Notes: generated by a model from the sequence alone, not told the origin. A DNA stretch of 64,000 nt from Candidatus Eiseniibacteriota bacterium (GCA_041946735.1 JBHGAY010000002.1:201623-265622); one strand, 5' to 3'. Shown: positions 11,944-26,080, numbered from the stretch's first letter. Translations and numbers: made by a program.

Positions 11944-11979
11944 AAAAAGAACGACTCCCGCGCGGTGCGCAGGAGTCAT
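11944..11979 (-). terminator. intrinsic terminator forming the riboswitch expression platform
   Basis: Minus strand GACTCCTGCGCACCGCGCGGGAGTCGTTCTTTTT; the stem uses the aptamer 3' GACTCC. Confidence 0.8.
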
Positions 11980-12024
11980 CGGCCCTTGCAGTCGGGCGGT
12001 TACGGCGAACTCCATCGCCCTCTG
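11968..12024 (-). ncRNA. fluoride (crcB) riboswitch
   Basis: Minus strand GGCGATGGAGTTCGCC-GTAACCGCCC..GGGCCGATGACTCCTGC fits the fluoride aptamer consensus, directly upstream of DUF190-crcB. Confidence 0.93.
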
Positions 12025-12059
12025 TAGATTTCCGCTTCCGAGCGACGCGGTCGTCTAGA

Positions 12060-20175: not shown

Positions 20176-21195
20176 TCAGCGCCCTTCCGCGCGCTGGGCG
20201 AGTGCCGTCCGGAGGAACGGGAGCCCCAAGATCCCGGGAAGCCAGTAGCCGCCGAGGGAATAGAGGATGCCGACGCCGAGCGAGACGGCGGAGGCGGAAA
20301 CGGGGGCCATGAGGCGGATGAGCGCCGCATCCCGCGTCCCCATTCCCGCGAGCGTCACGGGAAGCAGGCCGACGAAGATGGCGGCGGGCAGGGCGGCCAG
20401 CACCGGACCGAACGGCGTGGGGCCGCGGAGGCTCACGTAGAAGAGCCAGGTCTGCACGACGCTCGCGAGCCAGTTCGCGAGCGTCAACAGCAGCACCGGC
20501 GCGAGCAGGGCGGGCCGCCCGAGCAGGAGGCGGAGCGCTTGCAGGAGCCGGTCCACCTTCGGCCGCAGCTTGCGTGGGACCGGCAGGCGGATCGTCAGAA
20601 GCGCGACGGTCCCGGCCAGACCGAGGACGAAGAGGCCCCCGGAGGCGAGCGCCAGCGTGTTCCATCCGCGCATCCAGGAGCCCGCGAGGCAGAAGGCGAG
20701 GAGAGTCAGGACGTCGAGGAGCCTCTCGGCCAGCACCGAACCGAGAACCGTGCTGACCGGCGCGCGGCCTCGCAGGAAGTACGCCTTCGCGAGATCGCTC
20801 CCTTTGGAGGGAGTGAAGACGGCGAGCGTGTTGCAGGCCATGATCAGCGAGAACGCCTGGCGGCCGGGGATCGGATGGCCGAGGGCGTCCATCATCCTCT
20901 GCCAGCGCCAGGCGGAGAAGACGGGGAAGGTGGCGGTCAGCAGCAGTCCGGCGATCAACGGAGCGAGGCGCGCCGAGCCGAGCAGCTCGAAGACGCGCGA
21001 GAACGAGACGTTGCGGAAGAGCAGGTAGAAGACGAGCAGAGTGACCAGGACGAGGACGGCCATCCGCACGACGTCGCGAAGGCTCGAGCGAATTCCGGGC
21101 GGCGGCGGAGTCTCGGGGACGCTGGATGGCGCGGCCGCCGGCGGCCGCGTCGCAGGCGCCGCACCGTCTCGCGTCGCGCCCGGCGATCCGCTCAC
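20176..21195 (-). CDS. lysylphosphatidylglycerol-synthase TM / UPF0104 flippase-like membrane protein
   Basis: GTG overlapping the upstream TGA; AWRWQ, TPSKGSDLAK, AERLLD, LPVTLAGMGTRD. Confidence 0.85.
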   Translation of the reverse strand: MSGSPGATRDGAAPATRPPAAAPSSVPETPPPPGIRSSLRDVVRMAVLVLVTLLVFYLLFRNVSFSRVFELLGSARLAPLIAGLLLTATFPVFSAWRWQRMMDALGHPIPGRQAFSLIMACNTLAVFTPSKGSDLAKAYFLRGRAPVSTVLGSVLAERLLDVLTLLAFCLAGSWMRGWNTLALASGGLFVLGLAGTVALLTIRLPVPRKLRPKVDRLLQALRLLLGRPALLAPVLLLTLANWLASVVQTWLFYVSLRGPTPFGPVLAALPAAIFVGLLPVTLAGMGTRDAALIRLMAPVSASAVSLGVGILYSLGGYWLPGILGLPFLRTALAQRAEGR

Positions 21196-22967
21196 GCGTC
21201 TCCCCCGCTCTCGAGCGATTGCCGTCCCGTCGTCAGATCGAACGTCCTGCGGACCTCGATCGATCCCGTCCGATTCAGGCGCTCGACGTCGCTCGCCGCG
21301 AGGTAGCTGCCCCGGGCGCGCAGCTCGTAGCGCTGGAAATAGCGGGACTGCGGCACGTAGCGAACCGACCAGTCGTCTCCGATCTTTACTTCGCGGAAGG
21401 CGGGCCCGCCGCGGCGCTCGATCCGGTCGGTCACGGTCATCCGCTCCCCCTCGAAGCGGATCGTCCGCCGGAAATGGACCGGAGCGCTCCCGCTCTTCGT
21501 CATCAGGAGCTTTCGGATCCATCCCTTGATCCGGTAGGCGGTCCCGGTGTGGGCGCCGGCGACGAGCATGAACATGCGGAAGCCGATCATCGTGAGCGGC
21601 GTGAACAGCTTCGAGACGACGTAGTGCATCTCCCCTTCGACTTCGAGCTGGTCGCTCTCCGCGATGGCCTGATGCTTCGGATCGATCCACTGCGAGGTGA
21701 GGACCTTCCCGTTCGCCATTCGCGCGAGGATGCCGCAATCGCTCAGGATCGACGTCTCGGTCGCGGGCTGATAGACGCGGATCGTCCCGCCCTTCGCGAG
21801 GTTCGTGGTGACGTAGGCGCTCGCCGTGCGTCGCGCCTCCATGCGGGAACCGGGCCAGTACTTCCGGAACGGCGCACCGCGCGCCGGGAGAACCGGCAAG
21901 CTGCCTGCTCGCGGCTTCCAGTCGATCCACGACAGAAGCAGCTCCGGAATCCTGTAGAGGAAGTAGCGATCCTCCTGGATTTCGGGAGGAACGAGCCGCG
22001 CCGACCACAGCGCCTCGAGCATCGTCTCGGCCACAGCCGCGGCAACCGGATTCTCCGGCGCGAACAGCTCGAATCCGTGGGGATAGAAGTGGAGGGTCTG
22101 GCGGCTCCCCATCGATCCGCCGAGGCTCTCCCCCGGATAGACGAAGTAGGAGAGGTACTCGATCGCCTTGGCGCAGACCTCTTCGATCCGCTCATCGGTG
22201 TAGCGCTTGCGCAGCTTTCCGAGGAACGACACGGTCGCCGAGAGATAGCCGAGATCGGCGCCGTCGTACTCCAGGCACCAGCCTTCGGGATTGCAGTAGC
22301 GCAGGAAGTCGTCGAGCCGGACGTGGAAGCCTTCGAGCAGCTTCGGGTCGCGAAGCAGATCGTAGGCTTCGTAGATCGGCAGGACGGCCATCGCATGGTG
22401 ATTGGCGAGAACTCCGGGCTCGTCGTACTTCGCGAGGAATCGCGCGGCGCGCGCGACGCAGGAGAGGAACCGTTCCCGCAGCTCCTTCGGGACGTTGGGC
22501 TCGATGCGACGATACGAATCGGCCATCGCATAGACGAGGAATCCGGTCGGGCCCGCCCACCCGCGCTCGTTGGGATAGAACTCGTCGAACGATCCATCCG
22601 GCCTCTGGATCTTCGTCCAGTACTCCATGGCTGCGAGGGTCCACAGCAGGATCTTGGGATTGCCGAGATACGGATTGTCCGGGAACGGCGTGGCGTAGGC
22701 GAGCGCGAGGGAATGGACGCCGAACTGCGCGATCGAGGAGGGGAAGTCGACGGTCCGGCAAAGCCAGTATTCCCGATGGAAGCAGCCGTAAGTGCGGGAG
22801 AACTCGTTTCGATCCTGCAGGGAGAGCAGCCGCGGAATCTGCGCGAGCGCGCGGTCGGAATAGGCGCGGCGCAGCTCTTCCCCGCGAGGCCGGCTCGCCG
22901 TCCTCTCGGGCGGGAGCGCCCCCTGCTGCGCGTCTTCGTCGACGCGTCGATCGGGCGGCACGATCAC
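21192..22967 (-). CDS. hypothetical protein, possible alpha/alpha-toroid glycan-active enzyme (heparinase II/III-like)
   Basis: Strong RBS AGAGGAGG; 591 aa; ANHHAMA, GWCLEYDGADLGY, beta-rich C-terminus. Fold assignment is inference. Confidence 0.6.
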   Translation of the reverse strand: MIVPPDRRVDEDAQQGALPPERTASRPRGEELRRAYSDRALAQIPRLLSLQDRNEFSRTYGCFHREYWLCRTVDFPSSIAQFGVHSLALAYATPFPDNPYLGNPKILLWTLAAMEYWTKIQRPDGSFDEFYPNERGWAGPTGFLVYAMADSYRRIEPNVPKELRERFLSCVARAARFLAKYDEPGVLANHHAMAVLPIYEAYDLLRDPKLLEGFHVRLDDFLRYCNPEGWCLEYDGADLGYLSATVSFLGKLRKRYTDERIEEVCAKAIEYLSYFVYPGESLGGSMGSRQTLHFYPHGFELFAPENPVAAAVAETMLEALWSARLVPPEIQEDRYFLYRIPELLLSWIDWKPRAGSLPVLPARGAPFRKYWPGSRMEARRTASAYVTTNLAKGGTIRVYQPATETSILSDCGILARMANGKVLTSQWIDPKHQAIAESDQLEVEGEMHYVVSKLFTPLTMIGFRMFMLVAGAHTGTAYRIKGWIRKLLMTKSGSAPVHFRRTIRFEGERMTVTDRIERRGGPAFREVKIGDDWSVRYVPQSRYFQRYELRARGSYLAASDVERLNRTGSIEVRRTFDLTTGRQSLESGGDA

Positions 22968-23203
22968 GATCTCGACCTCCTCTACGACTTCGGTTCTCGG
23001 GTTCGCTCGACGGGGCTGCTACGGCCCCGGCAGCCGCGCCGTTTCAACGCCGGAGACCGGCGGGCGGCCTCGATCGCAGCGACCCGACCGATCGTAGCAG
23101 CACCGGAGCTTGTTGTCGTCTCGCCGCTTGCGCGCCCTTCACTCCGCGCCAACTCCGGTCCTTCTCGTCCAAATCCGCCGAGCGTTCGTCCGGCTATCAT
23201 GAA

Positions 23204-23260
23204 GTAATCAAGATTACGAAATAAAAACTTCTTGACCCTTCCCGCACCCTGTCGCATAGT
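23204..23260 (+). promoter_or_regulatory. sigma70-type promoter with AT-rich UP element and upstream palindrome
   Basis: GTAATC-AA-GATTAC (23204-23217), AAATAAAAACTT, TTGACC (23232)-17bp-CATAGT (23255). Confidence 0.6.
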
Positions 23261-23266
23261 GACATT

Positions 23267-23435
23267 GAGGGTCGTGATCGGCCCAACGGTTTCGGGACCC
23301 GGCAAGCCGGAACAACCCGGAGACGAGAAGGTGGGGCAAGTCCCCACCCTTGCCCGTGTCACCTTTTGCGGCCAAAGGTGGTGCGGGCATCTCTTTGGCG
23401 CCCCGAATGGTTCGGCCATTCGGGGCGCGATCTTT
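23267..23435 (+). ncRNA. candidate structured small RNA, family unknown
   Basis: Five consecutive hairpins downstream of the promoter; G-U pairs valid only on the + strand; no credible + strand gene; flanking genes are on the minus strand. Confidence 0.55.
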
Positions 23436-23498
23436 CGGGGCGCCTGCCTGGGCGGCCGCCTCCAGTTCGTGGCGGCCTTGCCCGGCACGCGAGCGCCC

Positions 23499-24593
23499 CT
23501 ATTCGCGGGGATCCGGAGCCAGGGTTTCCTCGCCCGTCCACGTTCCGTCCGCCGCTCGAGGCGTCGCACCGGCGGCCGGTCCAGGCATCGTACCGGCCGG
23601 GTCTGAGCGCATCCCGTCGATCCGCTTCTCGATCCCCCCGCTCTCGATGACGAATCCTGCAGGCGGGGCCGCATCCTGCCAGGCCTGGCGCTCTTCCTCG
23701 GCGAGGCCCCAGCCATCCGGATGGAGCCGATAGCGAGCCAGGCGGCGGGAAAGATCCGCCTTCCGCTCCGCGACCGAAGCGGCGCGCCAGCGCGTCGCGA
23801 GAGCGGGCGACAGGATGCGGACGAGCCGCCCCGCCGTACAGACGACCGCGCGAGGATCGAGATCGGCGACCGTCCAGGCGCGCCGACTCCTGTGCGCGGC
23901 GGCGGCCAGCGTCCCGCTCCCGCAGGTCCAATCCGCGACTCGGTCCCCCTCGTCCGTGAACGCTTCGATCAAACGGACGGCCAGGGCTTCCGGCTTCTGC
24001 ATGGGATAGCCGAGCCGCTCGCTCGAGTCGGCGGGAAGGAACGGGATCTCCCACACGTCGTCGGCCCACGCGTAGCGGTACCAGCCCCGACGATCGCGAT
24101 GCTCCTCGACCCCTCGACGGTTCGCGCGGTGCGCCAGGTAGCGCTTCTCCCGGAAGGCGTGGAAGGTGTGCGCTGGGCCGTTGCGCCAGACCAGGAGCGT
24201 GTCGTGCTTCCAGGCGAAGCGGTCCCGCGCCACGCCGCCGCTCCGGTAATGCCACACGATCTCGTTGAGGAATGCGGCCGGGCCGAGGCGTTCCTCGAGT
24301 GACACCCGCACGAACGGCGCGAGGCGAGGATCGAGATGGACCACCAGGATCCCGCCGGGACGAAGCGCCTCGATCCCACGCTCGAGCCTCGGGATCCAGC
24401 ACTCCAACCACTTGCCGCGATTCGAGCCGTCCTGCAGCGGGCTCTCCACGCGACCGAGACCGAATCGAAAGCGCTGGGCGCGTCCCGTCCCGAAAGGAGG
24501 ATCGACGTAGAGCAGCGCCAGGCTTCCCCGCTCGACCGACTCGCAGGCTTGCAGGAACTCGGCATGGAGCAGGACGTTGGGGGCGGTGTCCAT
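23499..24593 (-). CDS. orphan beta-class N6A/N4C DNA methyltransferase
   Basis: YVDPPF (motif IV), NEIVWHY, DDVWEIP, YPMQKPEAL, DWTCGSGT (motif I variant). Confidence 0.88.
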   Translation of the reverse strand: MDTAPNVLLHAEFLQACESVERGSLALLYVDPPFGTGRAQRFRFGLGRVESPLQDGSNRGKWLECWIPRLERGIEALRPGGILVVHLDPRLAPFVRVSLEERLGPAAFLNEIVWHYRSGGVARDRFAWKHDTLLVWRNGPAHTFHAFREKRYLAHRANRRGVEEHRDRRGWYRYAWADDVWEIPFLPADSSERLGYPMQKPEALAVRLIEAFTDEGDRVADWTCGSGTLAAAAHRSRRAWTVADLDPRAVVCTAGRLVRILSPALATRWRAASVAERKADLSRRLARYRLHPDGWGLAEEERQAWQDAAPPAGFVIESGGIEKRIDGMRSDPAGTMPGPAAGATPRAADGTWTGEETLAPDPRE

Positions 24594-24790
24594 GGCGTCG
24601 TTCTTACGCCGCTCCCGGCCGCCTGTCCATCGCCGCTCTCCGCGAGACCGCCGGCCTTGTGTCACACGCCGGTCCGTCACGGTTCGTTGACGATCCGGCG
24701 CTCCACCCGATACGATCCGCGCGATTCGCGGCGTTACCGGATCGCTTGGGGTGGGGGCGAACGGGGCCGAGTCGCGGTGGGGGGAGGCGC

Positions 24791-26080
24791 ATGGGACAGG
24801 ACCGGCTCTGGGCAGACCCGCATCCTCGCGGAGCGCGGCTCGGTCGCGATTGCATCCTTCTCCCCGGGATTCTCCTCTCGATCGTCCTTCTTTTCGCCGC
24901 CCCCGCGGCTCGCCCCGCCGTCGCGCAAACGGTCTCCGGGACGAGCGGCGAGCCGGCGCCCGCCATGCCCCCGGCCTCCTCCACCCCCACGGCTCCCGCC
25001 GCGACGCCGCGCGCTCCCGCGGACCTGCGCGCGATCGACACGCCCAACGACCGAGGCGAGAGCATCGACCTCACCTGGCAGGCAAGCCCCGACGAGGCGA
25101 GCGCGGTCACGCTGTACGAGATCCAGAGGTCGACCTCTCCCGAGGGACCGTTCGAGACGGTGGGGCAGATTCCGGCGGGGACGACCAGCTACACCGACAA
25201 CTCCGTGAAGGACGAGACGGGCTACTACTACCGGATCGTGTCGGTCGGCAGTGGCTCCGGCCCTTGGGAGACCACGCCGGCCGTGGGGCCGGCGACGTCC
25301 CATGGGCAGTGGTTCGACGCCCGCAAGCTCCCCACGCTGCTTCTCACCTTCGCCTTCTGCGTGGCGGTCGTGTTCCTGATCGGGCAAGCGCGCCGCGGGC
25401 GGCCGTTCTACATTCGGCCCATCCCCGGCCTGGCCGCGGTGGACGAGGCGATCGGGCGCGCAACGGAGATGGGCAAGCCGATCCTCTTCGTCTCGGGCCT
25501 CGGGACGGCAGGCGACGTCGCCACCCTTGCCGCCTTCACGCTGCTCGGGCGCGTCGCCCGGCGCACGGCCGAGTACCAGACCCAGGTGATCGTCCCCTGC
25601 TACGACCCGATCGTGATGACGATCTCGCAGGAGATCGTGAAGTCGTCGTACCTCGACGCCGGCCGGCCGGAGCTCTACCGCCAGGACGACATCTTCTTCG
25701 TGACGCAGGACCAGTTCCCCTTCACGGCCGCCGTCAACGGCATCATGCTCCGCGACCGGCCCGCCACGAACTTCTACATCGGCAAGTTCTACGCGGAGAG
25801 CCTGGTTCTCGCAGAGACCGGGAACATTGCCGGCTCCATCCAGATCGCGGGAACCGACGAGATGACCCAGATCCCGTTCTTCGTCGCGGCGTGCGACTAC
25901 ACCCTGATCGGAGAGGAGCTCTACGCCTCCAGCGCCTACCTCTCTCAGGAGCCGCCGCTGCTCGGAACCTTGAAAGCGCAGGACTGGGGAAAGGCCCTGG
26001 CCGCGTTTCTGATCGTGGCCGGAGCGATTCTCGCCGCCTTCGGGCAGAGCTGGTTCGTCCGGTTCTTCCAGGTTCAGTAG
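24791..26080 (+). CDS. membrane protein with fibronectin-III-like domain and a conserved alpha/beta domain (DUF6754-like, from recall)
   Basis: Signal/TM, Pro-Ala linker, DTPNDRG..IDLTW..YEIQRS..SYTD..YYYRI (Fn3), TM, IRPIPGLAAVDEAIGRATEMGKP..CDYTLIGEELY, C-terminal TM. Confidence 0.8.
   Translation: MGQDRLWADPHPRGARLGRDCILLPGILLSIVLLFAAPAARPAVAQTVSGTSGEPAPAMPPASSTPTAPAATPRAPADLRAIDTPNDRGESIDLTWQASPDEASAVTLYEIQRSTSPEGPFETVGQIPAGTTSYTDNSVKDETGYYYRIVSVGSGSGPWETTPAVGPATSHGQWFDARKLPTLLLTFAFCVAVVFLIGQARRGRPFYIRPIPGLAAVDEAIGRATEMGKPILFVSGLGTAGDVATLAAFTLLGRVARRTAEYQTQVIVPCYDPIVMTISQEIVKSSYLDAGRPELYRQDDIFFVTQDQFPFTAAVNGIMLRDRPATNFYIGKFYAESLVLAETGNIAGSIQIAGTDEMTQIPFFVAACDYTLIGEELYASSAYLSQEPPLLGTLKAQDWGKALAAFLIVAGAILAAFGQSWFVRFFQVQ

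Follow-up and report, generated by a model that had tools for sequence, protein, structure and literature searches.

Trans-acting small RNAs that are independent of Hfq and ProQ are known, for example the sRNAs of Bacteroides that are served by RRM-type proteins. Other regulators pair through loops, as exemplified by the C-rich loops of RsaE/RoxS and RNAIII and by the kissing-loop antisense RNAs. We know of no cultured member of Candidatus Eisenbacteria, a name filed by NCBI under the candidate phylum Eiseniibacteriota, and a full-text literature search returned no published description of an Eisenbacteria small RNA in the passages retrieved; those on the phylum, from one paper, dealt with CsrA predictions. 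Here we analyzed a locus in a 64,000-nt stretch of DNA (hereafter the window), which is part of contig C12 of an Eisenbacteria assembly (G000) of 4.9 Mb and 94.8% completeness. An initial annotation, made from the sequence of the window, had proposed that positions 23204-23444 hold a free-standing structured RNA with its own promoter and terminator. Our results point, with a probability of roughly 0.6, to an independent + strand gene for a non-coding sRNA of about 131 nt, running from about 23267 to about 23396, which would most likely be a trans-acting regulator. The features of the locus (H1 to H5 are hairpins) and the basis on which each was assigned are as follows.

21192..22967, - strand: divergent neighboring gene for a 591-aa protein without a Pfam family (GC3 frame, orthologues)
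23204..23231, + strand: AT-rich, UP-like tract (A+T content ahead of the -35 box)
23232..23260, + strand: predicted sigma-70-type promoter, TTGACC-17-CATAGT (promoter scan and conservation)
23269..23284, + strand: H1, a 6-bp hairpin found in family f1 only (minimum free energy [MFE] fold; RNAalifold on seven f1 sequences)
about 23287..23325, + strand: H2, f1 only, with a conserved base (UUCGGG/CCCGRA) and a variable apex (MFE fold, RNAalifold)
23330..23348, + strand: H3, a 7-bp hairpin ahead of the terminator (MFE fold; structure-aware alignment of 15 sequences)
23349..23350, + strand: short pyrimidine linker (no pairing in any sequence's ensemble)
23351..23389, + strand: H4, a 16-bp hairpin and predicted intrinsic terminator, with outer stem GCCCG/CGGGC (terminator scan, covariation)
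23367..23373, + strand: apical loop of H4, UGCGGCC (invariant and unpaired in every ensemble)
23390..23396, + strand: U-rich tail UCUCUUU after H4, the probable main 3' end (T count)
23398..23444, + strand: H5 (13 bp, 23398-23428) and the repeated UUCGGGGCGCC at 23434-23444 (direct reading of the sequence)
23499..24680, - strand: convergent gene for an N6_N4 DNA methylase, between the RNA and the DUF6754 operon (Pfam PF01555, E 3e-25)

The locus shares with the Bacteroides-type sRNAs a sigma-70-type promoter, a length of 75-135 nt, a small number of hairpins ending in a Rho-independent terminator and confinement to a narrow lineage. The likeness extends to the host genome, which encodes five RRM_1 proteins, none of them on the contig of the RNA, and one CsrA; Hfq (PF17209) and ProQ were not found in the G000 assembly, whose 94.8% completeness means that such an absence is not proof. 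The two differ in that the most conserved exposed element is here the loop of the terminator hairpin and not a 5' single-stranded seed, and in that the Eisenbacteria RNA has no Rfam similarity. With RsaE/RoxS, RNAIII and the kissing-loop RNAs it has in common a short G+C-rich loop that does not vary, carried on a stem that is stable and covaries. However, the loop is UGCGGCC and not an anti-Shine-Dalgarno sequence of the UCCC type, there is one such loop per RNA, and neither a partner loop nor an mRNA site complementary to it was conspicuous in the genome. Pxr of Myxococcus, about 110 nt long, likewise has several hairpins and a terminator, and gave the best Rfam alignment below threshold; it belongs to another phylum, its alignment leans on H5, its score is 21.7 bits as compared with a gathering score of 80, and the relatives of our RNA remain unmatched. 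Most likely, judged from sequence, this is a new RNA family of one order of Eisenbacteria only, and one of a familiar kind.

The promoter and the AT-rich tract that had been read in the window both withstood scrutiny. In the interval 22800-23900 a single sigma-70-like site was detected (0.1 in shuffled sequences), and it was TTGACC-17-CATAGT at 23232-23260. A (T/G)TGAC -35 box, followed 17-18 nt downstream by a -10-like hexamer (these hexamers were chosen by eye), was present in all 15 family sequences of the comparative set, which comprised 10 sequences from genomes and 5 from metagenomes. Eight of them, the window included, belong to family f1 and seven to family f2, the two RNA-bearing families of the same order of Candidatus Eisenbacteria. 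The 40 nt ahead of the -35 box were 70% A+T in the window, 62-78% in the seven other f1 sequences and 40-70% in the seven f2 sequences. Locally, the GC content dipped to about 0.53 at the RNA locus, as compared with 0.63-0.78 in the flanking 150-nt segments (21800-23990). The transcription start is predicted to lie near 23266-23268.

The MFE structure of 23262-23444 had a z-score of -4.1, and none of 200 shuffles gave an equally good fold. The minus strand folded equally well (z = -5.2), so the strand is not given by folding energy alone. RNAfold returned each of the hairpins H1 to H4 where the initial annotation had placed it, and all four were recovered by RNAalifold from seven f1 sequences (G002, the longer 5' part of which was unalignable, was omitted), with two-sided changes at 6 of 36 pairs. 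Three of the six pairs of H1 had such two-sided changes; H1 is absent from the f2 RNAs, which are about 77 nt long. In H2 the pairs at the base are kept in f1, one of them being changed on both sides. Its apex, CCGG-CAAG-CCGG at 23299-23310 in the window, is different in each relative and variable in length, yet it always forms a hairpin. In the loop of H3 only the central AG is kept within f1, and nothing is kept in f2. Since the CAAG loops of H2 and H3 are thus not conserved, the proposal that they are repeated protein-binding sites is unsupported. The linker together with the H3 3' arm reads CCCUU in the window and CCCUC, CCUUC, UCCUC or CCUAC in f2.

Relatives of the RNA were found by several routes. 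In a BLAST search with the 241-nt stretch, a segment beginning at 23284 or 23317 and ending at 23397 was matched in four of the five other f1 genomes with 84-91% identity. A covariance model, R1, built on H3 and H4 from five f1 sequences (G000 and G002-G005), was searched against 35 genomes of the order and gave strong matches (36-108 bits) in 10 of them: the five source genomes scored 99-108 bits, and five f2 genomes (G013, G015, G021, G025 and G029) scored 36-50 bits, an occupancy of 5 in 13 for f2. True matches to R1 were absent from the 15 genomes of f3 and from the one of f4. The fifth other f1 genome (G001, 75% complete) was also without a true match, its lone hit being a segment of RNase P RNA. 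When the rebuilt model, R2, was run over 151 genomes sampled across the phylum, strong matches were confined to f1 (four of four, plus the genome of the window) and f2 (4 of 10). A pattern in IUPAC code for those bases of H4 that do not vary occurred at 8 places among 185,579 species, each represented by one genome, and all of these were loci already found; in metagenomes it matched 9 contigs, 8 of which were accepted. The ninth, L059, has neither a promoter nor a U tail and gave no R2 match at E <= 1e-6, and was set aside as a chance match to the pattern.

Weaker hits did not enlarge the family. Four of the eight hits of about 20 bits, which lay in G001, G010 and G032 and at second places in five genomes, could be read as a segment of RNase P RNA, and the remaining four, which had neither the loop nor the promoter, were generic hairpins or resembled coding sequence. 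The RNase P segment (GGUGAGG-loop-CUCACC followed by a G+C-rich hairpin; 19-22 bits; L027, L031, L020 and L021, at about 1501-1567 in each) resembles the RNA in shape only. Hits of 28 bits to R2 outside the order (G091 and G112) also lacked the loop and the promoter, and BLAST fragments of 23-30 nt in G035, in G053 and at a second place in G004 (E 2e-4 to 7e-3) were taken as chance. Within f2, four of five genomes without a hit keep the ubiE-like gene that neighbors the RNA elsewhere in this family, and RNA-like sequence beside the gene was absent from them (best score 8.8 bits, in ±1.5-kb loci searched with filters off). The RNA is thus patchy and dispensable. Where it does occur, in members of f1 and f2, the RNA, its promoter and its terminator are kept together, in agreement with the conservation expected of the proposed RNA gene.

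Comparative evidence for the structure was obtained from the variable stems. In the 10 genome sequences 95.1% of the cells were paired and 10 of 23 pairs were changed on both sides, and in the set of 15 the corresponding values were 95.6% and 11 pairs; these pairing figures are generous, the alignments (A4 and A6) having been fitted to the structure of the model. None of 500 column shuffles reached either result, a statistic that overstates the independence of the 15 sequences, which are close kin from two families. When the partner columns were slid along the 10-sequence alignment, pairing fell to 35-54%. The compensatory changes are located in H3, where 5 of 6 pairs of the variable helix were changed on both sides and 97.6% of the cells were paired, and in H4, for which the values were 6 of 16 pairs and 94.6% (15 sequences in both cases). 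Most of H3 and the middle and top of H4 covary; the five outer pairs of H4, GCCCG/CGGGC, were unchanged throughout. All 10 genome sequences, which had been retrieved with BLAST or with the covariance model, had the same loop, UGCGGCC, a count that leaves aside the five metagenome sequences, which were picked with a pattern requiring this loop and hence cannot test its invariance.

The same comparison fixes the strand. At four pairs of H4, G-U alternated with G-C or A-U among the 15 sequences, and the opposite strand would present A-C mismatches at these positions; thus, the RNA lies on the + strand, as had been argued from the three G-U pairs that can be read directly in the window. Consistent with this, the model matches scored 99-108 bits on the forward strand versus 23-29 bits on the reverse strand.

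On sequence grounds, H4 and the U tail after it form the conserved terminator, and H5 would fall outside the conserved RNA. The terminator scan gave H4 a stem of 16 pairs, 8 of them G-C, and within the 9 nt that follow H4 there are 5-6 T in all 15 sequences. On the minus strand H4 is followed by AAGGG or GAGGG and not by a U tail, so that it should be unable to terminate the convergent genes. Downstream of the tail the sequences of relatives are unalignable, and none of the 14 other family sequences has a counterpart of H5 after H4. The claim that the RNA has a terminator of its own therefore stood in so far as it concerns H4 with the U tail, and did not hold for H5 as the conserved terminator. 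The second copy of UUCGGGGCGCC at 23434-23444 had been noted as offering an alternative pairing for H5, and such a pairing, of 23397-23407 with 23434-23444, is indeed used in the MFE structure. A dispersed repeat was considered and discarded, as H5 has no second copy in the 4.9-Mb genome. H5 is specific to this genome; it is possibly a remnant brought in with the methylase insertion, or else a back-up terminator, the latter being suggested by the H4 tail of the window, UCUCUUU, which is among the weaker ones.

The neighborhood of the RNA bears on a reading in which it is not independent but the cis-acting 5' leader, of attenuator or riboswitch type, of the DUF6754 operon; H4 would then be a regulated terminator, and the methylase insertion would make the RNA look free-standing. 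In f1 the left-hand neighbor is stable: orthologues of the 591-aa gene, 63-72% identical, lie next to the RNA in G002-G005, so that this synteny holds in all five RNA-bearing f1 genomes. A + strand open reading frame at 21126-23207 was dismissed as a shadow of this minus-strand gene (21192-22967) on account of its GC by codon position. On the right, DUF6754 genes lie downstream in four of the five f1 genomes, and in G005 about 130 nt separate the H4 tail from a DUF6754 gene of the same orientation, into which read-through is possible. The ancestral f1 order seems to be that of G005, namely the ~590-aa gene (leftward), the RNA (rightward) and the DUF6754 operon (rightward). In the f1 RNAs, moreover, a reading of the sequence indicates that pairing between the 5' arms of H3 (AGAAGGUG) and H4 (CACCUUUU) could replace the terminator. 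Against this reading, the RNA is intact and unchanged when the gene downstream is a convergent methylase (G000 and G004; the latter has, at the same place, a methylase gene with 59% identity, L041:6954-7982 on the - strand, which is absent in G005), when another open reading frame intervenes (G002) and when unrelated genes, with no DUF6754 gene, follow (G003). The f2 neighbors are different, comprising genes for a ubiE-like methyltransferase, PEP-CTERM and peptidase proteins, and the next gene is convergent in four of five f2 genomes. Since 6 of the 10 genomes overall have a convergent gene next downstream (G000 and G004 in f1; G013, G021, G025 and G029 in f2) and the neighbors differ between f1 and f2, the RNA is not an obligate leader, and the observation that it runs opposite to both flanking genes of the window, divergent on the left and convergent on the right, is borne out. 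What would be expected of a riboswitch or attenuator, a regulated gene of the same strand directly downstream across members, was not found, nor was there an Rfam riboswitch match. A terminator/antiterminator switch was discarded because the alternative pairing is just 8 bp, as compared with 7 + 16 bp for H3 plus H4, and is missing in f2. We consider the leader reading very improbable. Also very improbable, in our judgment, is that there is no functional RNA at all and that the locus is a conserved intergenic stretch, in which a promoter-like box and hairpins serve the neighbors as terminators or as sites at the DNA level. The equally good folding of the minus strand and the narrow, patchy distribution of the family (5 of 13 in f2, 0 of 15 in f3) would fit this, but the minus strand has no U tail after H4, the G-U pattern is strand-specific, the stems undergo compensatory changes while the flanking DNA cannot be aligned, and the distance from promoter to hairpin is fixed in 15 of 15 sequences though the neighbors differ between the families.

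Transcription was addressed with contigs from RNA libraries. Three of them, of 200, 159 and 151 nt, from three libraries of three studies, matched the core with 95-99% identity and cover only 23279-23397; one spans 23279-23396 with 3 differences. They are assembled at a depth of 2-3.7 and carry neither strand nor end information, and DNA origin is possible; they give a weak hint that the RNA of relatives is present in RNA preparations. All three continue 22-75 nt beyond the H4 tail, a point against the independent sRNA and in favor of the leader. Returning to the independent sRNA, we compared it with known families and with coding sequences. The initial annotation had matched it to no known family, and the same was found with Rfam 15: at the gathering score no family lay on the RNA and nothing in 23100-23600 came near a cut-off, and at E <= 0.1 no family lay on the RNA in the loci of 12 relatives, the single hit there being a tRNA elsewhere in L014. 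The best sub-threshold match was to Pxr (RF01812), the sRNA of myxobacteria (21.7 bits, E 0.13, at 23323-23436 in a search of 501 nt), which would make the RNA a distant member of that family; this is extremely unlikely, given a score so far below 80, a third stem-loop mapped to the non-conserved H5, and the failure of every relative's locus to match at E <= 0.1. Equally unlikely is an mRNA for a small protein. The f1 RNAs do have a frame of 23 codons or more that starts from a GTG within the H3 5' arm, but one extra nucleotide in the H3 loop disrupts it in G003, and f2 lacks an equivalent; one f2 sequence (mg055) is without any open reading frame of 10 codons or more. ATG is absent from 7 of the 15 RNAs, no open reading frame is common to f1 and f2, and the open reading frames overlapping the RNA had no Pfam match. 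6S RNA was also discarded: the genome has its own 6S gene elsewhere (G000:C25:40516-40694, - strand; 70.9 bits to RF00013), and four separate hairpins are present here versus a long rod with a central bubble. A more serious alternative, although still an unlikely one, accepts an independent sRNA and has it act by binding protein, with RRM-type proteins, for example, docking on or being titrated by the H4 stem-loop and U tail. Hfq and ProQ went undetected where RRM_1 proteins and a CsrA are encoded, genome searches produced no base-pairing target, and an invariant loop and outer stem beside a covarying middle stem are the pattern expected of a protein recognition hairpin. In G015 an RRM_1 gene of the same orientation follows the RNA at a distance of about 300 nt, which would fit as well; such adjacency is, however, limited to this one of 10 genomes. 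A single hairpin site stands in contrast to the repeated sites typical of titrating RNAs, and CsrA binding is disfavored, and an sRNA of the CsrB/RsmZ type discarded, on account of the low number of GGA motifs, 0-3 per RNA, which are absent from 3 of the 15 RNAs and lie outside the conserved loops.

The trans-acting sRNA that we prefer has, in silico, three of the attributes by which sRNA genes are recognized: a promoter of its own at a conserved distance, an intrinsic terminator of its own, and compensatory structure without a conserved reading frame. It would be transcribed from the sigma-70-type promoter, with the AT-rich tract boosting transcription, and the transcript would end at H4 with its U tail. 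The predicted RNA measures about 131 nt in the window and 134-186 nt in the rest of f1, as compared with only about 77 nt in members of f2. The functional core common to the two families may be the ~77-nt 3' module made up of one hairpin, the pyrimidine linker and H4, to which H1 and H2 would be f1-specific additions. The only conserved parts that are always exposed are the 7-nt loop of H4 and the linker of 2-5 nt, a small surface that weighs against our reading; the recognition surface would be the H4 loop, perhaps together with the CCCUY linker. The RNA is, we believe, probably a trans-acting regulator that works through this 3' module. Sequence analysis shows the gene, with its strand, structure, conservation and independence of the neighbors, whereas its transcription, its ends, its action in trans and the part played by the loop are inferences. 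Loop-mediated pairing with RNAs that bear GGCCGCA is slightly favored over the docking of an RNA-binding protein. We searched the genome for partners. The longest perfect antisense match of the RNA in its own genome was 15 nt (blastn-short), and those in the same sense equalled the antisense ones in length and frequency, which places it at the level of chance; the matches by complementarity gathered at a codon-like segment, GACGAGAAGGUG. The genome has 1613 occurrences of the loop heptamer and 1613 of its complement; about 50 of either lie in a hairpin-loop context, and no candidate was conspicuous among them. A bolder proposal, for which the odds are rather against, is that the UGCGGCC heptaloop is a dedicated recognition element, either the seed of a kissing loop or the dock of an RRM-type chaperone, and that it defines a new, Hfq-independent class of riboregulators specific to Eisenbacteria, whose minimal unit would be the two-hairpin RNA of 77 nt in f2, extended by two hairpins in f1.

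As an sRNA family, the locus annotates a recurrent 'empty' gap in these genomes and can serve as a marker of a single order in the phylum. Its compactness, with about 77 nt in the smallest members, also makes it amenable to tests in vitro or in a heterologous host. No long-standing question is opened by it; further lineage-specific sRNAs are to be expected wherever they are sought.

Several further observations were made around the locus and its relatives. In a protein-atlas feature search the 591-aa protein fell near clusters in which 32-47% of the members carry Ulvan_lyase_N (score 0.98-0.99), which we regard as a lead only. A + strand open reading frame at 24272-26080 encodes 602 aa, of which only residues 344-598 correspond to DUF6754, and its orthologues have 403-409 aa; for these two reasons the DUF6754 gene probably starts near 24870, clear of the methylase gene. 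In the f2 family, the RRM_1 gene of G015 is at L048:6513-6911 (- strand), and in G021 a tRNA gene (L014:2679-2762, - strand) is located about 1.1 kb from the RNA. The lone Rfam hit of the window at gathering level is a fluoride riboswitch (crcB motif, RF01734) at 11963-12028 on the - strand, with 54.2 bits versus a gathering score of 34.
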